From Candidatus Altimarinota bacterium (GTDB lineage Bacteria; Patescibacteriota; Gracilibacteria; UBA4473), in the NCBI GenBank assembly GCA_965231215.1, contig OZ246423.1:64001-128000 (forward strand): a stretch of 64,000 bases of DNA, written 5' to 3'. Shown piece by piece: positions 7,531-28,959 of this stretch. A model generated the notes under the pieces. It saw only the letters and a list, made by a program, of their open reading frames with translations. It made no database searches and was not told the origin of the DNA. The stretch's first letter is position 1. Each line of letters opens with the position of its first letter. A program made the position numbers and the translations under genes.

Positions 7531-8394
7531 CTAATCTACATCAAATATCTGCCTCAATACTCCATCCACTATTTTATATTGGAAGCGTTTGTTTTTACTC
7601 TCAAAGTCTCTTTTTACAAAAGAAATCATAGTCTGATCAGCTATATAACGGATTCTTAAATTTTCTTCAAAAACTCCACGAAGTGCAGGATCAAACTGGT
7701 ATTTAATATTTTTCTCTTCACAAAAAGAGATCATATTAAGCGTATGTTCATAGGCATCACACTGAATCATACAGTTTACTTTGTGCTTCTTACAGGCTGC
7801 ATCTAGCCGATCTAACTTTCCAAGGATAGTAGAACCCTTTATAGTTTTATGCAGCCCATAGGGATCAATTACTCCTACGATATGATGAGGCGCATAAGGA
7901 TTTTTATCTATAGCTTCTATGAGTTTTGCAGCTACTGGGTTAGCTCCGATAATAAGCGTTTGATAGAGAAACAAATTTCGAGACTTTTGCCACATTAATA
8001 AAAATCGGAAAACCCACTGACTTATTAGTAGAAAGCTTACCCCAAAGACAATAATATAAATATTAATCAGACGAGAAAAAAACAGTTCCTGATTAAAGAA
8101 ATAGATAATCACCAAAAAACTACTGGCAATAATTCCTCCACACAAAATTAAAGCCAGATCAAAAAACACTCGTTTCCCAGACCTTGGGGGGATTCTGTAG
8201 TATTTTGCAAATCCAAGAAACCCGATCCAAGTAAGGGTAGCTAAAATACTAGCATAAGCATAAGGGGTAAAATCAAAGTCCGTTGAAAATATCCACCCTA
8301 CTCTCACAAAATAGGCCAAAAAGAATGCCCCCAAAACCCCTAATATATCTATCAGAATATGTAGTGTTCGCAAAATTATCCAGTGTTTAAGCAT
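7531..8394 (-). CDS. Membrane protein resembling the N-terminal TM plus Rossmann region of polyprenyl-phosphate sugar-phosphotransferases, without the catalytic domain
   Basis: About 4 TM helices, TLIIGAN, IVGVID, ILGKLDRL; ends where the catalytic domain would begin. Confidence 0.65.
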   Translation of the reverse strand: MLKHWIILRTLHILIDILGVLGAFFLAYFVRVGWIFSTDFDFTPYAYASILATLTWIGFLGFAKYYRIPPRSGKRVFFDLALILCGGIIASSFLVIIYFFNQELFFSRLINIYIIVFGVSFLLISQWVFRFLLMWQKSRNLFLYQTLIIGANPVAAKLIEAIDKNPYAPHHIVGVIDPYGLHKTIKGSTILGKLDRLDAACKKHKVNCMIQCDAYEHTLNMISFCEEKNIKYQFDPALRGVFEENLRIRYIADQTMISFVKRDFESKNKRFQYKIVDGVLRQIFDVD

Positions 8395-8422: not shown

Positions 8423-8455
8423 AAAAACTCGAGACTGAAATTGCCTCGAGTTTTT
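8423..8455. terminator. Intrinsic terminator downstream of the Hint gene
   Basis: AAAAACTCGAG...CTCGAGTTTTT inverted repeat. Confidence 0.7.
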
Positions 8456-8476: not shown

Positions 8477-11400
8477 TTATTTTGGTGCAGCAGCACCATC
8501 ATTTCCATCATTTCCATCTCCATCATTTCCATCTTTATTATGAACTAGCACTCCATCAGCATAAAAAGTATGGTATTGAGACACTTTACTAAGATTATAC
8601 GTTTGAACTTCACCTTCAACGTAGTCAACAGATTTGAGTTCTACCGATCCTTCTAAGAGTTGAATTACATCCCCAATCTCTAGCATAGCCACGCCGAGTT
8701 GATGATCTTCCTCTGTTTTTTGTGGATCAAGCGAAGCCCAAGTCTGAGTCCCATCTGCCTTAGTTACGTATACTGGATGCTCTGAAGTAACTCGTAAAAG
8801 ATCATTGTTGAATTTGTAGTATCCTTCCCTTACTGGTGTTTCAAGTTTCAAGACTTGTGCCATAACAGTTTCACCATTTTTTTCGTTATAAGCCAGAACT
8901 TCATCTCCCAATATTATGTCTTCAATCTTTTTAATACTCTGGTCTGCCATCGTAATTTTGGTTCCAGCGGGAAAACAACAAGGTTCAGGTTTTGGACGTT
9001 TACGTGGTGTACACGGTTCACGAGTATCCTCTGCAGGTCCAAGAGGCTTTCCATTTTTGAACTTTCTTTCCCACCAAGTTTTTGTTCGTCTACTACAAAA
9101 CCTTGCATATTTAATTTTATCATCTTTTTTTTCTTTAGGCTTACTAGGCTTACTAGTTTTCTTGGGACATTCGACACCAGTACTAATCCATTTCCCCCAT
9201 GATCCCCAAGTACCTTTGCGAGTTTTACAACGAGTTCTTTTGCACCAGAAACCATTTCTACAAACTCGTTGTGTTTGACAAACTCGACCTTTTCTCCGAA
9301 CTTCTTTAGTTTTTGGTTTTTTAGAAGTTTTTGGTTTTTTAGAAACTCTTTTAACGACTTCTACTCTTGATTTTTTAGAAACTCTTTTAACGACTCTTGG
9401 TTTTCTGGGTTTTACTGGTTTTGGACTAGAGTATGGCGCTCCGTATTTTTCAAGGGGGATAACAATAAGGTTTCCTTCACATCCATTATCCATTTGAGCA
9501 ACCAACATAGTCACTCCATTTCTTCGTGAAATAGTCACGTTTTTAAGGGTAAAGTCTCCAGCTGTTTCCAAACTCATATCATTCCATCTATCTCCTTTCC
9601 CCGTTAAAACATGAAGCCGTTTTCCAGCAATACTACCGTATTCTTTTCCCCCGATCGTAATTGCACCATTTTTAAGCCATTCTCCAACACTTGCTGTCGT
9701 TCCTCGGTTCATATCTCTTTCTAGACCAGCTTTAGAGTTCGGGCCTTGTAGCGATTGAGCGGCTCCAAGAAGCCCTCGTTCAACAAAGTAACTTCTGGTA
9801 TCTCTTCCTTTGGCTTGAGCAATAGCTTTCTTAACCACTACATTATTGTTTAATTGTTCCATTATTTTTACCATGAGCGCTTGAGCTTCTGGCGTAGCCC
9901 CTATTCCCATTTTTTCTACTCGATATACAAGATATTGAGCGACTCGATTACGCCCATCAAGGCCACCAGCTTGATCAAGTCTTGTCATAGCTGCTAGACC
10001 ATCAATGTCTTTAACTCCTGCGGTCGTAATAAGGCTATCAATTTTAGCTTTAGTAGCCGCTGGAATATTTTCACTACTTCGGGCAATAACCACTTCTGTT
10101 TCATATTTTTCTAGAATTTTGGCTAATCTTCCATCTTTTCCAGCGGTCTTGATAGCCTCACGAGTTTTCGGCCCAATTTTGGCGTCTACACCTCCCGTAT
10201 CAAGACCTTCTTTATTAAGTTCTTTTTGTACAAATTTAATAAATTCTGTACGTTTTGGTCCTCGCATAAGACTGACCCTGCTTTTAAAATCAGCAAGCGT
10301 TACATCTCCGTATTCAATTTTTTCAGTGGTTGGAGCGACCGTATCTACTTGATCTTTAGTCGTAGGAGTAGTAGTATCTACTGGATTGACTTTAGTAGTG
10401 TCATTTCCAAGTTTCTCAGTAATCCTTTGGATAGCGGCTTCTACAGCTGCACGGGTTTTTTTGCCAACTTTACCATCGATATCATCGGCCTCATTCCCAG
10501 AATCACTTAGTTTAAATCCTTGTTCTCGGAGCCATCTTTGAGCTTCTTTCACAGAACCTTCTGTTGGAAGCTCTTTAATGCCTTTTAGTTCTTCTAGTTT
10601 TTCTTTTAGTTTTTCTTTTGGAGTATTCTTGAGATATTCATCAAAATTCCCTCCTGTACTTACTACTTCAGAAGCCACTGCACCAGAACCTTCTAAGGTT
10701 TTAATAGCGGCTTCAAGTTGAGTAATCCATTCAAAGTTATAATACTCTACTTCAGGGAAATCTTTTTGTTTATCAGCGCTTAGACTATTATATCCCTCTT
10801 GATAAGCTTCAAGAGCTGCTTTAAGTTCCGCTACATCGGCACTTACTACCTTAACATTTTCTTCGTTAATTATATTTTGAATAACCACACGCTTCTTTGC
10901 GTCTACTCTTGTATATTTTTTCAAAAGTTCTTGTGAGAGGTCAATAAGTTTATTCTCAATATTTTTAATATTTTTAACATTTTTTATAATTTCATCCGAT
11001 TCATAGGCATCAATTTTTTCTTTTAGTGGTAGCAGTTCCGTTAGTACAGAAAAAGAATCAAGCTGAGAATCCTTAAATTCTCCATTAGCCAAATTAAAAG
11101 CCACAATCGCATTATAAGCCTCTTGATAAAGAAACTTAGCTGTTTTAATATTGTCTTTATGAATTTTTTCCAAAAATTTATCTTGAGTAGCTTTTATTTG
11201 TTTTTCAGCCTCTCCTCTCAAGGTTTGAAGTTCTTCAAGCTTTTCTTTTGGAATTTCTGATCTATCTCTACTATCACTCGGAGTTGCCTCTTTAAATTCT
11301 GATGCCTTGGCAGAGATAGAAAAAATACTTTTTCTCTCTTCTGCAAACTTAGCTTCTTCGTGAAGTTTTTCAGTTTCTAGTTGTAGAAAGGTCTGTAGTT

Positions 11401-11716
11401 CTTTAAGGTTCTTAAATCCTAATGCTTCAAATTCTTTTCGAGTTAGTAACACGTCTTGATCTGGCATCCAGGAACGATCAAAGCTAATTTTGATATTAGA
11501 AGTCCCTGATTCACGAGAAACAGTCACACCAGAATTTCCAGACCAATCATCTACATCTAAATTTTTAAGGTCTACTAGTTCTCTAATCCGATCTAATAAA
11601 TTATTCCGAGCTTCTTGACCCCCTGGAGTTACTTCTTGGCCAGATTCATGACCTGAGTCTAGAGTTTTGAAAATAAATTTAGTACCCTCGAAATCGGCAT
11701 TGCATAGAAATTTCAT
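8477..11716 (-). CDS. Large protein with two peptidoglycan-binding repeats, a cationic Cys/Trp-rich region and a C-terminal Hint (intein-like) domain
   Basis: VKEAQRWL..IDGKVGKKTRAA and IKFVQKEL..VDAKIGPKTREA; CFPAGTKI..TSEHP..TYNL..ADGVLVHN. Confidence 0.85.
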   Translation of the reverse strand: MKFLCNADFEGTKFIFKTLDSGHESGQEVTPGGQEARNNLLDRIRELVDLKNLDVDDWSGNSGVTVSRESGTSNIKISFDRSWMPDQDVLLTRKEFEALGFKNLKELQTFLQLETEKLHEEAKFAEERKSIFSISAKASEFKEATPSDSRDRSEIPKEKLEELQTLRGEAEKQIKATQDKFLEKIHKDNIKTAKFLYQEAYNAIVAFNLANGEFKDSQLDSFSVLTELLPLKEKIDAYESDEIIKNVKNIKNIENKLIDLSQELLKKYTRVDAKKRVVIQNIINEENVKVVSADVAELKAALEAYQEGYNSLSADKQKDFPEVEYYNFEWITQLEAAIKTLEGSGAVASEVVSTGGNFDEYLKNTPKEKLKEKLEELKGIKELPTEGSVKEAQRWLREQGFKLSDSGNEADDIDGKVGKKTRAAVEAAIQRITEKLGNDTTKVNPVDTTTPTTKDQVDTVAPTTEKIEYGDVTLADFKSRVSLMRGPKRTEFIKFVQKELNKEGLDTGGVDAKIGPKTREAIKTAGKDGRLAKILEKYETEVVIARSSENIPAATKAKIDSLITTAGVKDIDGLAAMTRLDQAGGLDGRNRVAQYLVYRVEKMGIGATPEAQALMVKIMEQLNNNVVVKKAIAQAKGRDTRSYFVERGLLGAAQSLQGPNSKAGLERDMNRGTTASVGEWLKNGAITIGGKEYGSIAGKRLHVLTGKGDRWNDMSLETAGDFTLKNVTISRRNGVTMLVAQMDNGCEGNLIVIPLEKYGAPYSSPKPVKPRKPRVVKRVSKKSRVEVVKRVSKKPKTSKKPKTKEVRRKGRVCQTQRVCRNGFWCKRTRCKTRKGTWGSWGKWISTGVECPKKTSKPSKPKEKKDDKIKYARFCSRRTKTWWERKFKNGKPLGPAEDTREPCTPRKRPKPEPCCFPAGTKITMADQSIKKIEDIILGDEVLAYNEKNGETVMAQVLKLETPVREGYYKFNNDLLRVTSEHPVYVTKADGTQTWASLDPQKTEEDHQLGVAMLEIGDVIQLLEGSVELKSVDYVEGEVQTYNLSKVSQYHTFYADGVLVHNKDGNDGDGNDGNDGAAAPK
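9310..9400 (-). repeat. Short tandem duplications encoding VVKRVSKK x2 and SKKPKT x2
   Basis: ttttttagaaactcttttaacgact repeated; ttttggttttttagaa repeated. Confidence 0.8.
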
Positions 11717-11742: not shown

Positions 11743-11755
11743 ATTATATCACAAA
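11743..11755 (-). promoter_or_regulatory. Extended -10 promoter TTTGTGATATAAT
   Basis: TGnTATAAT 26 nt upstream of the Hint gene start; identical 13-mer at 22585 and 36758. Confidence 0.7.
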
Positions 11756-11894
11756 AAAATAAAAATAACAAATGAAAATTTCTACCTCCTTTATACAAAC
11801 ACTTGTTAAAAGCTTCAAAGAATTTAATAAACCCCCAAAGCTAAGACAATTTTATGTCAAAAATAATCTACACAAAGAATTCCCTTTCAATAAT

Positions 11895-12428
11895 CTACGG
11901 CACAATATTCAACCACACAAAGTCAGTCCAATCACCTCCTGAAACCCCCTCTGAACCAGTCGCACAATTCATAGAAGTCACATTTTTGGCCTGATTTATA
12001 GCTCCCTGTGTACCATCAAAAATAAATCCAGCTCCCCCAGTTCCCGTATCATTTTCTTTCTTCGTAATAATAATAAATTCTTCGTTATTAGCCACTCTTG
12101 CCTGATATCCATAAAGGTAACAGTGCCCATCAGTAAATTCTGGAAGATTATAATCTTGGTTATCCATCCGAGACTTAAAATCACTTACCGTTACCAGATC
12201 CAGGGCTCCAAAAATTCCATCCCCATCTAAATCAGCAAAGTTAACCTGGTCTGAGATAAATTCATCAGATTTAATAATAATAGTCGCATTCCTAATGACA
12301 CTCAACCGAGAAGCATCATTAGCACTAAAAACATGGTTATGAAACGTAGCTACCCCCATTGATGAAAGGATTCCCGTAATCACAATGGTCACCAGCAACT
12401 CTACAAGTGTAAATCCCCTTTTAATCAT
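11895..12428 (-). CDS. Type IV pilin-like protein
   Basis: Prepilin cleavage motif KRG/FTLVELLVTIVITGIL; start placed at MIKRG. Confidence 0.88.
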   Translation of the reverse strand: MIKRGFTLVELLVTIVITGILSSMGVATFHNHVFSANDASRLSVIRNATIIIKSDEFISDQVNFADLDGDGIFGALDLVTVSDFKSRMDNQDYNLPEFTDGHCYLYGYQARVANNEEFIIITKKENDTGTGGAGFIFDGTQGAINQAKNVTSMNCATGSEGVSGGDWTDFVWLNIVP

Positions 12429-12467
12429 TACGCAGATTTTACACACATATTAACATAAAACAAGTTC

Positions 12468-12502
12468 AAAAAAAAAGCGGCTCCCAAAAGGAAACCGCTT
12501 TT
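12468..12502 (-). terminator. Intrinsic terminator between the two pilin genes
   Basis: AAAAGCGG...CCGCTTTT hairpin with a T-run on the minus strand. Confidence 0.7.
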
Positions 12503-12524
12503 AGATTTAAACAATAATTTTAAA

Positions 12525-13052
12525 TTATTCGTTCAAAATTTGAATATCATAGGTAGCTACAGAGTTAATAGTTCCTGAACCAGCTGTACTTTCTGTAACG
12601 TTAACAATACCGCCTGTTCCATCACATAGAGTATCAGCCGTGATATCAGCCACAGCTCCGGCTGTACCATCAACAATGGGTGTTCCGCTGTTTTCTTCAC
12701 TACAAGTAAAGAAAGCAAACTGGTCAGCACCGTTGTTTACGTAAACGTAAGTGTACCCAGTAGTACTAGCCGCCGGCACAGAGTATCCTCCTTCGCTGAA
12801 GAGAGTCCCTTCAACCGATCCAGCGGTAGTCGTGTCTCCTTCGGCAATATCGAAGCTAGTAATAGTATTAACTGCACGGGCAGTTTTAAGAAGCGTAGCC
12901 ATGTTTCGAATGGCAGCTTGTCGTTCTGAATCACGAGCTTTCTTGAAGTAACCAGAGAAAGTCGCAACAGAGATAGTTGCTAGGATACCGATGATCACGA
13001 TAACCACGAGCAACTCAATAAGGGTGAATCCTTTTTTTGCTTGTGTTTGCAT
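12525..13052 (-). CDS. Type IV pilin, probably the major pilin
   Basis: KKG/FTLIELLVVIVIIGILA, KARDSER; has its own terminator. Confidence 0.9.
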   Translation of the reverse strand: MQTQAKKGFTLIELLVVIVIIGILATISVATFSGYFKKARDSERQAAIRNMATLLKTARAVNTITSFDIAEGDTTTAGSVEGTLFSEGGYSVPAASTTGYTYVYVNNGADQFAFFTCSEENSGTPIVDGTAGAVADITADTLCDGTGGIVNVTESTAGSGTINSVATYDIQILNE

Positions 13053-17515: not shown

Positions 17516-18808
17516 ATGAGTCTCAATTTCAACTTCGGTCTCAAAGGAAAAAATGACGATAGTACTGTCGCCCAAGACGACGGCGCAACTCCCGTAACAG
17601 ATCCTGTAGTAGATCCTAATGCTGGTACTGATCCAGCCGGAGGACAACCTGTAGGAGATGATATTACTATTAATGTAACAGACGCCCCAAGTTTAAGCGA
17701 TGACTCTAGTATTCAAATTACTTCAGAAGAACCAGTTCAAGCTCCAGTAGTGCAAGAAGCTCCGGTAGCTCCAGTGGCCCCCGTAGCAGATCCTTTTGCG
17801 ACTCCTACTGCCACAGAAGCTACTACCGTAGCAATCGAACCAAGTCTAACAACTCCAGAAACAGCAGCGGCTCCTGTAGCTGACCCCTTTGCTGCGCCTG
17901 CTCCAGTTACACAAGAAGCCGCACCAAATCCTTTTGAAGCTCCTCAACCCGTTGCCCCTGCCGCTGAAATAGCTCCGGTTGAAAATCCTTTTGCTACTGA
18001 AACTCCCGCTGAAACCGCCGCTCCAGCATCTATAGCTGAAGCCCCTATCCCTGAGGCAACAGCGCCAGTAGAAGCGGCACCAGTAGCTGAGGCTGCCGGC
18101 ACAGAAAATACTAACGCTGATTTTAGTTTTAATCCTTTTGGTGACACTCCACCAGCCGCTGAAGAAACCTCCACCCTAGTGGAGCCTGTGGCTGAAGCCC
18201 CTGTGGTTGAAGCTGTCGCTGAAACTCCGGCTCCAGTTGAAGAAACCGTTACTCCAGTTGCTGAAGAATCTACAGGGTTCGGAGACCTCCTTGCCGATTC
18301 TACTCCTGAAGCAGCCGCAGGTACTGCCGCTGCCACTAGTACACAAGATGACGCCGTAGTTGCTGATGATACAACCGTTAATAATGAGGTAGCTGTAAAT
18401 CCATTCGAAGATAATAATACTTCAACGGTACAATCAGACGACAACTTTGCAGAGGAAGATTACGATGAAGATTACAGTGAGGAAGAGTATGAAGAGGTAG
18501 ATCCTTTAAATTCTCTTACAAGTATTAAGTCTGAGATTGAAATGTTTGTAGAAATGCACACTCAAAACATTAAGGACTACGAATCTCAAATTGAAGTACT
18601 AAAAGCCAACATCAAATCTGAGAAAGAACTTCTAAAAGGAAAAAAAGCTGAATTTAGAGATATGCTTCACGAAATTGAAGGTCTAACTGGAGATTTTGAA
18701 GATTCCTCTGAAAAACCAAAAAAGAAACGAAGACGGAAATCTAAATCTAAATCCCACACAGACGCTCCAGCCGAAACCTCAAATTATGAGGAGGAAGCTG
18801 AAGCCTAA
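17516..18808 (+). CDS. Acidic Pro/Ala/Glu-rich disordered protein with NPF/DPF repeats and a C-terminal coiled coil
   Basis: Low-complexity composition; DPF x2 and NPF x4; heptad-like C-terminus. Confidence 0.75.
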   Translation: MSLNFNFGLKGKNDDSTVAQDDGATPVTDPVVDPNAGTDPAGGQPVGDDITINVTDAPSLSDDSSIQITSEEPVQAPVVQEAPVAPVAPVADPFATPTATEATTVAIEPSLTTPETAAAPVADPFAAPAPVTQEAAPNPFEAPQPVAPAAEIAPVENPFATETPAETAAPASIAEAPIPEATAPVEAAPVAEAAGTENTNADFSFNPFGDTPPAAEETSTLVEPVAEAPVVEAVAETPAPVEETVTPVAEESTGFGDLLADSTPEAAAGTAAATSTQDDAVVADDTTVNNEVAVNPFEDNNTSTVQSDDNFAEEDYDEDYSEEEYEEVDPLNSLTSIKSEIEMFVEMHTQNIKDYESQIEVLKANIKSEKELLKGKKAEFRDMLHEIEGLTGDFEDSSEKPKKKRRRKSKSKSHTDAPAETSNYEEEAEA

Positions 18809-25549: not shown

Positions 25550-27235
25550 ATGAAGTTTATATATCAACAGAAACTAAAAACAAACTATCGGTTTATCTAT
25601 CAAGAAAAACCGGAAGATAGCCCTGAAGAAAACAACAACAAAGAAAATCTAAATGATGTCATAGAAGACATAGAAGCTTTCTTAGCTGAAAAAACTAAGA
25701 CAAAAAAAAATACACCACTTCCAGACGAATTAGTTCAGCGATTTATAGAAGCTTCAAAAGGTTCAAAAGTGGAAGACTTAGCAAAACTTATTACTGACCC
25801 AAAAATAGGTAGAGGAAAAGAAAGAGTTGAATATGTCATTAAACGACAAAAATTTGAAGAAGCCTGGAAAAAACTTTCTGAAAAGACTGATAGTGTAAAA
25901 ATAAACCCAGAACTCAAAAACCAAGAAACCGCTCGAATTATGCATGAAGTTATAAGCGGTATTTCTTTAGATGAATTTAATGATCCTGCAAAGCTTGAAA
26001 AAGCTATAAAAAACACCATTGCCAATGAAAGGGTAAAAGAATTCAATCAAACCAGGGCCGACAACGGTGAAAAAATTAATCCTGCAACAGATATTGATGA
26101 AAATGGAAAAATTAAAACCCCAACCCTTGCTGATAAAATTGCTGAGGTAGCTAAAAAACACAAACTAGATAGTCACCTACTTGCGCGTAGTGCCGCGTTA
26201 AACTTTGATAATTTTGGTTTAGATAAAGATGGGAATATACTATCAGAACATCATGGTGAGATTTTTGAAAAAAACCTAGAATCTCTAGCTAAAAAAATTA
26301 AAGAAACAATGAAAAAAACTGACATAGACCCAAAGAAGGCAGAAGAATTAAAGAAAAAACTTGGTTCTAACCCAACTCAACAACAAATCAACAACGCTAC
26401 TGACCAAGCAGTTTCTAGCTACAGTGGTGACAAACCAAGAACTCTCTGGGATTTGATTCAGGCTTTATTAGAATTCGCTAACATGGGGATTGGTGGGCGG
26501 AATCCTAACGATAAAACTCACGGCACTGTAAATGCTGGCCCAAATAGAGTCAGGTATGACCAAGGAACAGCCAGAAATCTGGACGCAGCGTATGAAAAAC
26601 TACAAAAAATAGATCCCAAAACCAATGAGCTTAAACTCAGTGATCAGTGGAAAGAAAAGCTAACGGCTAAATTTGGTGGTCAAATTGAATCCGTCACCAA
26701 TTACCTCAAAAAATTTCCAACCAAATGGCAGGGAGCCGGAGCCGAGTTTTTATTCAAACTAGGGCGTATTCCTGCAGACAATAAAACTATTGGGATTGCC
26801 AACGTTAAAGGGGGAATGGCCTTAGCTGTATACCCAGACGGAAAAGTCCATGAATTCCCTATTATTATTGGGAAAAACGGATACTCAGATGGAGCCAGAT
26901 CCGGTGACAAAAAAAGTAATCTTAGACGTATTCAAACCATCGTAGGTGGAAAACTTGTAGGGCGAGGTCAAGATGCCAGCAAAACCGGTTCTAGAACCGT
27001 TGTTGGAGCTGCCTTATATAGCAAAGAAGAGGCTCATACTGGAAAATGGTGGCACGGAGTAGCTGATAACCGTATAGCCGGACGCCGTGGGCGAACCTGG
27101 GGATGTATTGGTGCCAAACAAGAACATATTCAAATGATGGCTCGTACCATGCTTAAAAAAGGTTCTGACGGTAAGGTTCAAGGAGGATACCTGTACCATG
27201 TAGATAGTTACGAAGGAGCCCCTAATAAAGTCTAA
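25550..27235 (+). CDS. Effector-family protein with a C-terminal YkuD-like (L,D-transpeptidase/peptidase) domain
   Basis: FPIIIGKNG..GDKK, WWHG-x12-TWGCI matching HxX(14-17)[ST]xGC. Confidence 0.75.
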   Translation: MKFIYQQKLKTNYRFIYQEKPEDSPEENNNKENLNDVIEDIEAFLAEKTKTKKNTPLPDELVQRFIEASKGSKVEDLAKLITDPKIGRGKERVEYVIKRQKFEEAWKKLSEKTDSVKINPELKNQETARIMHEVISGISLDEFNDPAKLEKAIKNTIANERVKEFNQTRADNGEKINPATDIDENGKIKTPTLADKIAEVAKKHKLDSHLLARSAALNFDNFGLDKDGNILSEHHGEIFEKNLESLAKKIKETMKKTDIDPKKAEELKKKLGSNPTQQQINNATDQAVSSYSGDKPRTLWDLIQALLEFANMGIGGRNPNDKTHGTVNAGPNRVRYDQGTARNLDAAYEKLQKIDPKTNELKLSDQWKEKLTAKFGGQIESVTNYLKKFPTKWQGAGAEFLFKLGRIPADNKTIGIANVKGGMALAVYPDGKVHEFPIIIGKNGYSDGARSGDKKSNLRRIQTIVGGKLVGRGQDASKTGSRTVVGAALYSKEEAHTGKWWHGVADNRIAGRRGRTWGCIGAKQEHIQMMARTMLKKGSDGKVQGGYLYHVDSYEGAPNKV

Positions 27236-27237
27236 AC

Positions 27238-28959
27238 ATGAAAAATCTAAAAAATCGATTCCAGATTCAGACAAAATTTATTTTTAAACAAAGTGCTACA
27301 GGCCCTGAAACTTCAACCGATACCCCGGAAAAAGCGAACCAAGAAGAGGCTATCCGTAGAGCCTTGGAAAAACATGCTTTAGAAAAAGATTCTGGAAAAC
27401 CTAAAATTTCTGACGAAGATATTAATGCCGGAATCGCTAAATTCATTGCCCTCTTTGAAAATGATAAAATTGATAAAATTGATGAGAAAAAAATTCCTGA
27501 ACTTATAGTAAAAGCGGTCAAAGCCAATGGGAAAGCTAGTGACGTACCGGAATTAGATACCCTTATTAAGAAGGTTATATCTATAAAAAAGCAACAAGTC
27601 TACGAGGCTAAACTCAAAGCTAAATTTGAGCACCCTAAAATGCATGTTTCTTCTGAACTCATGCAGCAAGCCCACCAGGCTGTAATAAAAGGAGATCCGG
27701 ATCTTCCACAAGCCACAATTGAGCAACTAATGGATGCTGAAGGTGACGTGGATAAAATCGATCCAAAATATAAAGACCTTAACCCCGAAGATTTCCTTAA
27801 AAATAAGGAATACATAAAACTTTTAGAGGAAAAAGTATTAGCACTAAAACTTCAAGCCCTTACTGAAAACCGAATAACACTACCAAACAAAACAGAAAAT
27901 AATGAAAAAACCGAAGCTGAAATTATCACCGGAATAGCCACAACTTTTGGCGTAGATCCAGAACTTTTGATGAACTACAGAGTGAGAAACACTGACGGAT
28001 TCGGTCTTAACTTTGAAAACGTAGAAGAGCAAGATGTAAAAAAATACATCGAAGAAATTGAGGCTGCAGCTTATAATCTCAAACAAGCCAAAGCTAAAGA
28101 AGAAAAAAAACAAACTGAACTTGAGCAGCTTATAAAAACTAAACCTAAAAATCCGACTGAAACTATTAAAAAAATAAAAGAACTCAGCAAAGATTTAAAT
28201 TTGGGAAAAGATAAAGATAAAGTAAATGATAAAAGTACCCAGATAGGCCAATCTGTGACACAAGCCAGAGAAGGATATAAAGATGAATTCTATTCACTTT
28301 ATGATTTTATAATGGATCTCTTAAATGCTGTTGGGTATCGTCCAGGCAAGGAAAAACCAAAACAAAAAGAAGGTGAAAGCAATGCTGACTATCAAAAAAG
28401 GCTTGAAGACTGGCAAAAAAAGCAAAAAACAAAACAAACTAACTACCGAAACAATTGGTCTTCTCAGCCCAATTCACCCGCTGATACTAAAGGAATTGAA
28501 GCTCCAAACGGAAGTGCCGTACAAAAGGCTATCGCTGCCGCTAATGCCGGGAATATATTAGGGGCAAAACACTGTACTGATTGGGTTTCTAAAGTATACG
28601 GTGTGAGTGTTCATAGTCTCAGAAAAGTACAATTTTCTGGCGCCACAAATAAACATGGAGACTTTGTAACCAAAGTAGGACGTGGTACAGGACTTGCTGG
28701 TAACGGTGGAGCGAGTGTAGAAGATATTAACAAAATGCCAGCAGGAACCCATATTATGATTGACCATTGTCGAGGTGGGTCTTGTGGCCAAGGAAAAACC
28801 CATAGTGCTATTCTTCTAGAACAACCTTCAAATGGAAAAGCTCGAGTGGCCAGTTATCCAGGGGGAGGAAAAAAACCAAGAATTGAAAACTACACCTTTA
28901 GCCAAAACGGATCTGGAAATTCTAAAAGAGTCATCCGAGCTCATTACCCTCCTTCCTAA
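27238..28959 (+). CDS. Effector-family protein with a C-terminal NlpC/P60- or CHAP-like domain
   Basis: KHCTDWVSKVY (Cys), PAGTHIMI, KTHSAILL (His). Confidence 0.7.
   Translation: MKNLKNRFQIQTKFIFKQSATGPETSTDTPEKANQEEAIRRALEKHALEKDSGKPKISDEDINAGIAKFIALFENDKIDKIDEKKIPELIVKAVKANGKASDVPELDTLIKKVISIKKQQVYEAKLKAKFEHPKMHVSSELMQQAHQAVIKGDPDLPQATIEQLMDAEGDVDKIDPKYKDLNPEDFLKNKEYIKLLEEKVLALKLQALTENRITLPNKTENNEKTEAEIITGIATTFGVDPELLMNYRVRNTDGFGLNFENVEEQDVKKYIEEIEAAAYNLKQAKAKEEKKQTELEQLIKTKPKNPTETIKKIKELSKDLNLGKDKDKVNDKSTQIGQSVTQAREGYKDEFYSLYDFIMDLLNAVGYRPGKEKPKQKEGESNADYQKRLEDWQKKQKTKQTNYRNNWSSQPNSPADTKGIEAPNGSAVQKAIAAANAGNILGAKHCTDWVSKVYGVSVHSLRKVQFSGATNKHGDFVTKVGRGTGLAGNGGASVEDINKMPAGTHIMIDHCRGGSCGQGKTHSAILLEQPSNGKARVASYPGGGKKPRIENYTFSQNGSGNSKRVIRAHYPPS

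Follow-up and report, generated by a model that had tools for sequence, protein, structure and literature searches.

The window analysed here is a stretch of 64,000 nucleotides from Candidatus Altimarinota bacterium (GenBank assembly GCA_965231215.1, contig OZ246423.1, positions 64,001 to 128,000), and all positions given below are counted from its first letter. Its minus-strand gene P0001 encodes a modular protein with peptidoglycan-binding repeats and a Hint domain at the extreme C-terminus, where a short tail separates the terminal His-Asn pair from the stop codon. The genome is one contig of 1.33 Mb, is 99.3% complete, and contains the Hint of P0001 as a single copy. This terminal Hint is genuine and intact and is nothing unusual for its family; the gene that bears it is not a broken toxin gene. 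The features of the locus are collected in Table 1.

Table 1. Features of gene P0001 and its surroundings, in window positions
Feature	Position	Strand	Observation
Whole gene P0001	8477..11716	(-)	1079-residue open reading frame
N-terminal motif MKFLCNADFEGTKFIFK (KFIFK motif), residues 1-17	11666..11716	(-)	common to other large proteins of the lineage
First peptidoglycan-binding repeat, residues ~392-432	10421..10543	(-)	Pfam PG_binding_3 stretch 392-432
Second peptidoglycan-binding repeat, residues 491-524	10145..10246	(-)	PF01471
Middle region, residues ~593-839	9200..9940	(-)	recurs in large proteins of genomes G023, G006, G002, G030, and G008
Basic linker, residues 805-913, ending ...KPEPC	8978..9304	(-)	Lys/Arg/Pro-rich, spaced Cys, Trp string WGSWGKW
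Hint (BIL-like) domain, residues 914-1060, 147 residues	8537..8977	(-)	exact translation from Cys (CFPAGT...) to ...FYADGVLVHN
Cys914 (Cys1), predicted thioester nucleophile	8975..8977	(-)	invariant in 31-sequence alignment; Cys in 316/325 instances
Block B, T977-S-E-H980	8777..8788	(-)	Thr and His invariant in 31-sequence alignment
His1059-Asn1060 (block G)	8537..8542	(-)	at least 90% conserved in 31-sequence alignment
Lys1061 (+1) and acidic Gly/Asp/Asn tail, 19 residues	8480..8536	(-)	predicted disordered, pLDDT <50
Terminator-like hairpin	8423..8455	(-)	13 pairs and T run; 0.0 expected in shuffles
Promoter-like site TTGTTA, 17 nucleotides, TG-TATAAT	11743..11771	(-)	10/12 consensus matches, extended TG; consensus match only
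Two type IV pilin-like genes upstream, 11895-12446 and 12525-13052	11895..13052	(-)	N_methyl motif in both

The terminal Hint domain

The Hint domain starts at Cys914 with CFPAGTKITMADQ... and ends with ...FYADGVLVHN at residue 1060. An original prediction, made before any database search, had placed a 147-residue Hint with Cys1, a TSEH block B, and a terminal His-Asn pair at this site, and translation confirms its coordinates and residues exactly. In a 31-sequence alignment, Cys1, Phe2, the Thr and His of block B, and the subsequent Pro are all invariant. Block F reads TYNL and aligns to VYNF of the Clostridium thermocellum BIL domain 2LWY, and the domain has no endonuclease insert. After His1059-Asn1060 the chain goes on with Lys1061 at the +1 position and then DGNDGDGNDGNDGAAAPK, and the 19-residue tail (KDGNDGDGNDGNDGAAAPK) is closed by a TAA codon. 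The scissile junction is a vicinal cysteine pair, Cys913-Cys914 (8975-8980, minus strand); among 325 instances of the family surveyed below, the -1 residue is Ser in 85, Cys in 79, and Gly in 54. A disulfide between Cys913 and Cys914 could hold the predicted thioester step in check until reduction.

On P0001, every Hint-type Pfam model stays below its own cut-off. The Hint model (PF01079) scores 28.1 bits against a cut-off of 29.7 and covers the first 87 of its 213 profile positions only, PT-HINT (PF07591) scores 16.9 bits against 27.7 (E 0.0078), Vint and Hom_end_hint give sub-threshold matches, and the NCBIfam model intein_Cterm reaches 15.1 against 15.6. Identity is established by solved chains and by fold. 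Among solved chains, 2LWY matches best by sequence, with an E value of 5.8e-6 over the full domain length including ...LVHN. The AlphaFold 2 (AF2) model of the Hint, built from the 31-sequence alignment, has a pLDDT of 90.4 and a pTM of 0.84, with a disordered tail. Foldseek ranks the BIL2 domain of Tetrahymena first (E 4e-11), followed by 2LWY, DnaB mini-inteins, and Hedgehog 1AT0, with BIL structures spanning E values of 4e-11 to 3e-8. VIA likewise places BIL2 first, at a Z score of 22.8 (root-mean-square deviation 1.8 over 147 residues), followed by 2LWY at 18.3, mini-inteins at about 18, and Hedgehog at 16.4. The domain is thus a genuine Hint with the full catalytic motif set, nearest to the BIL domains, and this identity is far beyond chance.

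The only Pfam model above its cut-off in this region is AXH (PF08517, the ataxin-1/HBP1 module), with 37.5 bits against 33 over residues 915-1018 (8663-8974, minus strand). AXH is also the strongest Pfam match on several relatives, reaching 154 bits on P0004. Ataxin-1 chains match the Hint sequence weakly (E 0.07-0.15). Since no AXH chain stands among the 50 listed matches of either Foldseek or VIA, AXH is tentatively set aside as the true identity of the domain. The match is probably a cross-recognition of the N-terminal two thirds of the Hint; either the eukaryotic AXH and the first two thirds of the Hint are relatives or the model is contaminated. No work joining the AXH domain with Hint was found among titles and the starts of abstracts, where "hint" is apparently the ordinary word.

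The features that differentiate the classes of Hint domains point to a type A BIL-like domain in P0001, an assignment made by features with 2LWY standing proxy for the original A-type profile. These features are (i) the Hint fold, (ii) the N-terminal Cys together with the TxxH motif, (iii) the C-terminal His-Asn, (iv) a +1 residue other than Cys, Ser, or Thr, and (v) location in a variable region of a non-conserved protein, where the Hint alone has relatives, is present or absent among homologues, and occurs in a single copy. The BIL-type label of the original prediction, with its Cys1, TxxH, His-Asn, and +1 Lys and without an endonuclease insert, therefore stands. Hog domains are distinguished by a sterol- or adduct-recognition region, which is missing after the Hint of P0001, and the PF01079 score lies below gathering. 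Pretoxin Hints are set apart by the low PF07591 score and by the stop codon and hairpin that follow the tail where a toxin would lie. A canonical class 1 intein is disfavored by the +1 Lys, the lineage-specific host protein, and the intein_Cterm score. Lastly, no ubiquitin-like domain is detected in P0001 by Pfam, so that the Hint fold is all it has in common with the BUBL type.

The ends of the gene are well defined. The stop codon and the in-frame upstream stop, two codons 5′ of the ATG, are both TAA, so a TGA-reassigning code alters neither end, and an N-terminal extension or read-through under another genetic code is rejected. Within about 22 bases of the stop codon lies a terminator-like hairpin. 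The start of the next gene, at 8394, is only about 80 bases from the P0001 stop. The stop, the hairpin, and the nearby gene together leave no room or remnant for a domain downstream of the tail, in agreement with the earlier claim that no toxin follows the Hint.

Homologues and the wider subfamily

Sixty related genomes were searched, and 12 have a match to P0001. The homologue in G004, from the same genus, has 1111-1129 residues (approximately, by the start chosen), the same kind of N-terminus, and a Hint that is 50% identical; it ends ...CFVAGTKVSMADG...YADGVLVHNK followed by 25 Gly/Asp/Ser residues and a verified stop. Two metagenomic proteins end similarly: P0168 (893 residues, of which P0052 is a fragment) has a Hint 55% identical with 28 low-complexity residues at its end, and P0064 (847 residues) has a Hint 52% identical with 25 such residues. 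Four more genes from the same bacterial family have verified stops 1-13 residues past the Hint, with the ends ...VVHNSGAHQE, ...LVHNYKALDSLDTLK, ...LVHNK, and ...YLVKDLK, the last without His-Asn. A comparison of tails thus finds no toxin after His-Asn in any of the nearest homologues (Hints 50-55% identical), which end 25-28 residues on.

Another same-genus homologue, in genome G002 (L093:3674-6010, 778 residues), has no Hint and carries a Gly/Asp-rich tail at its end. Over its first 300 residues it is 57% identical to the Hint-bearing P0168, and the two have a region around "NGCEGN" in common. Because the Hint is absent here while the N-terminal half is kept, the domain appears to be an optional cassette, gained and lost among homologues. 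This pattern agrees with the account in PMC7765530, which places BILs in hypervariable regions of non-conserved proteins.

An exhaustive HMMER search with the last 174 residues as the query, counted in cluster representatives, finds 6140 members of the Hint subfamily at E<=1e-3; tightening the threshold to E<=1e-10 leaves 1585, and to E<=1e-30 leaves 140. The tallies that follow cover 339 Hint instances in 165 fetched proteins, which are the best-scoring matches and not a random sample, with stop codons verified only at the loci from the related-genome scan. Cys occupies position 1 in 316 of 325 instances, and His-Asn is found at 278 domain ends, the commonest exception being SN (13). The +1 residue after these 278 His-Asn pairs is Lys in 198, Arg in 18, and Cys, Ser, or Thr in 24. 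A further Hint follows within 10 residues in 112 of the 278 and at a greater distance in 40; the others belong to last domains, 45 with a tail of at most 30 residues and 81 with a longer one. Among the 149 proteins with a complete last Hint, the tail has at most 1 residue in 10, at most 5 in 28, at most 20 in 43, and at most 30 in 55. Enrichment at positions +2 to +16 after the last Hint is 2.5-fold for Gly, 2.3-fold for Pro, and 2.9-fold for Cys. Since short Gly-rich tails are common in the family, the Lys and Gly/Asp/Asn tail of P0001 is most simply its usual linker, and a terminal Hint appears, from these tallies, to be ordinary for the family.

The homologue ends and the tails also bear on another explanation for a terminal Hint, namely that the allele is a shortened polymorphic toxin of the pretoxin-Hint type, its C-terminal toxin lost by truncation. 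Hints do release C-terminal toxins in polymorphic toxin systems, as described in PMC3482391, and the weak PT-HINT match would fit such an origin. That match nevertheless falls well short of its cut-off, and the hairpin follows directly upon the stop with about 80 bases to the next gene. The closest homologues terminate alike, so P0001 is not a truncated pretoxin allele, and no toxin domain follows the Hint in nine long-tail members scanned with Pfam; the parts beyond their Hints are adhesin-like instead (fn3, CarboxypepD_reg, SdrD_B, SpaA, and Ig). The homologue ends, the tail tallies, the long-tail domains, and the hairpin lead to the rejection of this explanation, which is extremely improbable.

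Many family members have 2-7 matched Hint stretches. In P0024, P0002-P0005, P0012, and P0025, two to seven catalytically intact Hints stand head to tail, joined as ...VHNK(G)(G)C..., and in some array relatives Hints form nearly the whole protein. A phrase search of the literature found no description of tandem Hint arrays, only table text in PMC3482391. Such arrays resemble a structural repeat more than they resemble single-turnover enzymes, and the domain might accordingly be a catalytically silent structural or adhesion module that merely looks like an active Hint. The retention of the catalytic positions, with Cys1 and His-Asn kept as tallied above and block B invariant, is unexpected for a structural repeat and makes this very unlikely.

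A separate group of seven short-tail relatives (P0021, P0053, P0072, P0117, P0148, P0159, and P0166) has the common N-terminus MKG[TV][FL]FSADF...L[RK]L[LI]E[VI]NT without a hydrophobic leader. These proteins end in one to three Hints, six stopping at ...HNK and P0053 at ...HNKL, and by sequence resemble an enzyme of the cytoplasmic type that bears a terminal Hint. Counted crudely, 26 of the 55 short-tail members have a hydrophobic segment at the N-terminus.

A scan of one genome per species finds at least 325 relatives among 600 candidate stretches. Judged by record title, the matches listed include Thermoplasmata, Methanosarcinales, Woese-, Nano-, and Pacearchaeota, many Patescibacteria lineages, Flavobacteriia, Gammaproteobacteria, Riflebacteria, Oligoflexia, and others, with L015, at 51% identity, the best bacterial match among those listed. 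No literature on a Hint domain in DPANN, Patescibacteria, CPR, or Woesearchaeota was found among the matches listed. Deposited phage genomes yield 14 matching records, all of them inteins in helicase, terminase, or hypothetical genes with 29-34% identity, and none of the 14 is a terminal cap.

Upstream parts of the protein and neighboring genes

The body of P0001 outside the Hint appears to be lineage-specific. A word-index search of 5.8 billion proteins with residues 560-1079 finds 22 matched proteins, each aligning to the Hint alone (28-32% of the query), and nothing related outside it. P0001 lacks both a Sec signal peptide and a transmembrane segment, its top Kyte-Doolittle 19-residue mean being 1.29. 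Its N-terminus carries the pattern MK[FN][LI]-x(6-9)-[KR][FWY][IVC][FWY], followed by a Pro/Glu/Gly-rich stretch. A loose regular expression matched nine open reading frames in the same genome, seven of which were judged true carriers (193-1635 residues), and the motif also occurs in three genes of G004, two of G002, P0064, and P0168. The other carriers in the genome lie at 25550-27235 and 27238-28959 (both plus strand) in the window and at G000:C1 425304, 428201, 1064617, and 1288688. None of the seven carriers has a Sec signal peptide, and the motif may be a lineage-specific export leader.

The peptidoglycan-binding repeats, which the original prediction had also named, are real: PG_binding_1 (PF01471) matches two stretches with an E value of 2.8e-11 and 43.9 bits against a cut-off of 23. 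PHROGs adds only a peptidoglycan-binding endolysin stretch and a weak match to a family of unknown function (E 1e-5). For the middle region, a protein atlas search gave no usable match, and the AF2 model of residues 545-800, built from a four-sequence alignment, is poor (pLDDT 57, pTM 0.35). The strongly basic linker just upstream of the Hint has no conserved counterpart in the G004 homologue, where an acidic GDS repeat takes its place, and a Pfam search at E<=0.1 detects no TSP1 domain in the linker. In the relative P0162 a TSP1 domain lies directly upstream of the Hint (E 1.8e-13), and other relatives show WSEWSEC strings beside the Hint.

Two pilin genes lie upstream of P0001, as the original prediction had pointed out, and both carry the N-methylation motif; the link that this position suggested is weak. 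A promoter-like site precedes P0001, a terminator-like site at 12502-12473 follows the first pilin gene and separates it from the other, and the same-genus homologue in G004 has no pilin-looking neighbor among open reading frames of at least 120 residues. With these sites intervening and no such neighborhood in G004, an operon of P0001 with the pilin genes is rejected, and the latter are probably neighbors that lie outside the feature. The genome also encodes one sortase (80.9 bits). Elsewhere in the window, an open reading frame of 430 residues (17516-18808, plus strand) is mostly Ala/Pro/Val/Glu/Thr low complexity, includes an acidic stretch, and is basic at its C-terminal end; a Pfam search with it returned no match.

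Predicted processing and comparison with known systems

The last 166 residues of P0001 are read here, with moderate confidence and by analogy, as an A-type-BIL-like autoprocessing module on a modular peptidoglycan-binding protein, a cap that would cut the 913-residue N-terminal protein free. Cys914 would attack the carbonyl of Cys913 in an N-S acyl shift, and the resulting thioester would be resolved mostly by hydrolysis or thiolysis, releasing residues 1-913. Cyclization of Asn1060 would shed the tail, which would represent a linker remnant and not cargo. Canonical splicing would not occur with the non-nucleophilic Lys at +1. This scheme follows the accounts of type A BILs in PMC4031507 and PMC7765530, in which His-Asn is kept, a +1 nucleophile is lacking, an N-terminal thioester is formed, and cleavage proceeds by Asn cyclization. 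According to PMC4031507, the products are mainly those of cleavage, with some splicing through a freed amine that attacks the thioester.

Several points weigh against this reading. Each mechanistic step is carried over by analogy, for P0001 as for its subfamily. Simple N-terminal cleavage would need neither His-Asn nor the +1 Lys, and yet proteins ending ...HNK retain both. A self-removing cap does not account for tandem arrays, which run to seven Hints. P0001 also has no recognizable secretion signal. Finally, the 165-protein tally draws on the best-scoring matches, with stops verified at the related-genome loci only.

One alternative outcome is BIL-type cis-splicing, in which the amine of Lys1061 (alpha or epsilon), freed once the thioester has formed and Asn1060 has cyclized, would attack the thioester, the 19-residue tail would be joined to residue 913, and the Hint would be discarded in the manner of a mini-intein. 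Such a freed-amine route allows type A BILs to splice although they lack a +1 nucleophile (PMC4031507), and the Hint-less homologue in G002, with its similar Gly/Asp-rich tail right after a Cys-containing segment, looks like a spliced product, although the alignment of these low-complexity tails is loose. Splicing is also favored by the +1 Lys, which is conserved, and by the 30-34% identity of the Hint to genuine mini-inteins from phage genes for helicase and terminase. Set against this, the 10 of 149 proteins with at most one residue past His-Asn have nothing worth ligating, and cleavage products dominate in the type A BILs studied in PMC4031507. On balance, cis-splicing is distinctly unlikely.

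A second outcome, unlikely as well and already put forward in the original prediction, is ligation, in which the Cys914 thioester would be captured by an amine, either of a peptidoglycan stem peptide or of a Lys in a surface protein of the cell itself or of a partner cell. A peptidoglycan-binding protein would thereby be fixed covalently by its C-terminus without ATP or sortase. The precedent is BIL2, the closest solved relative (Z 22.8), which is described in PMC8616854 as forming an isopeptide between a Lys epsilon-amine and the C-terminus of the N-extein and as conjugating this N-extein to other proteins without ATP. The two peptidoglycan-binding repeats of P0001, the hydrophobic N-terminal segments counted among short-tail members, and the adhesin-like downstream domains of long members would suit such a role, and the retention of His-Asn-Lys without cargo hints at chemistry beyond hydrolysis. 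Thermoplasmata, however, are wall-less, and the abundance of the family in this group and in tandem arrays means that attachment to peptidoglycan or to a wall is not its general role. Moreover, the genome already has a sortase, the adduct-recognition region is missing after the Hint, and a literature search found no work joining the terms Hint domain, C-terminal, thioester, and peptidoglycan.

A broader proposal, drawn by analogy with BIL2 and speculative enough to be called improbable, extends ligation to the subfamily. Caps that terminate in His-Asn-Lys would be self-contained ligases, independent of ATP and sortase, whose thioester is resolved by an amine, be it of a wall stem peptide or of a Lys on the surface of the bacterium or of a partner cell; Patescibacteria of the episymbiont type and DPANN archaea would use them to staple adhesin-like proteins covalently in place, the +1 Lys and Asn cyclization would time or gate the reaction, and arrays would be multi-shot devices.

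BIL domains have been known since 2003, and their use to their hosts is unsettled. The type A BILs, including 2LWY, are the subject of Amitai 2003, Dassa 2004, and Aranko 2013 as cited in PMC4031507. Like P0001, the C. thermocellum domain has the Hint fold, Cys1, TxxH, His-Asn, and a block F Tyr-Asn, lacks a +1 nucleophile and an endonuclease insert, and occupies a variable part of a non-conserved protein. Sequence identity between the two Hints is only about 26-28%, and the P0001 subfamily differs from 2LWY in its strongly conserved +1 Lys, its frequent tandem arrays, and its strong presence in DPANN, Thermoplasmata, and Patescibacteria.

BIL2 of Tetrahymena thermophila (BUBL1 locus, PDB 6Y75/6TMM) is the best structural match to the P0001 Hint. 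It is presented in PMC8616854 as a non-canonical Hint whose thioester is resolved by a Lys amine instead of a +1 Cys, Ser, or Thr. Unlike P0001, BIL2 is eukaryotic, has ubiquitin-like domains on either side as cargo and acceptor, and shares about 24% identity with the P0001 Hint; the N-extein of P0001 is a 913-residue peptidoglycan-binding protein, and there is no folded C-extein.

The Hog domain of Hedgehog (PDB 1AT0) resembles P0001 as a C-terminal Hint on a secreted-type protein, with a thioester that activates the N-terminal product. The Hedgehog junction is Gly-Cys-Phe, which the Cys-Phe-Pro start of the P0001 Hint recalls. Hog domains are not known to use a terminal His-Asn. The Hedgehog-style activation put forward in the original prediction is a less apt analogy than the BILs: P0001 keeps His-Asn, has no sterol- or adduct-recognition region, and gives a Z score of 16.4 with Hedgehog vs 22.8 and 18.3 with the BILs. 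In Hog domains a sterol-recognition region follows the Hint, according to PMC7765530, where P0001 has its disordered 19-residue tail. Pretoxin Hints (PF07591), for their part, are like P0001 in belonging to large, variable, probably exported proteins for which autoproteolysis is expected. P0001 is unlike them in that a toxin and an immunity gene are absent downstream, and its long-tail relatives are adhesin-like.

A similar placement is reported in Burglin 2008 (PMC2362128) for secreted proteins of Myxococcus, Photorhabdus, Yersinia, and others, which end in a Hint-like domain. As described there, this group has a terminal Hint as P0001 does, signal peptides in some members, and conserved Cys residues just upstream, and it is divergent from inteins, Hog domains, and BILs, with motifs A and B alone being clear. 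The P0001 Hint, in contrast, has all intein-type blocks present. A terminal bacterial Hint is thus already in print, and the interest of P0001 lies not in the terminal position of its Hint but in the size and the regularities of its subfamily. These regularities are two, the conserved Lys right after His-Asn and the frequent placement of the Hint at the very end of surface-type proteins or in tandem arrays.

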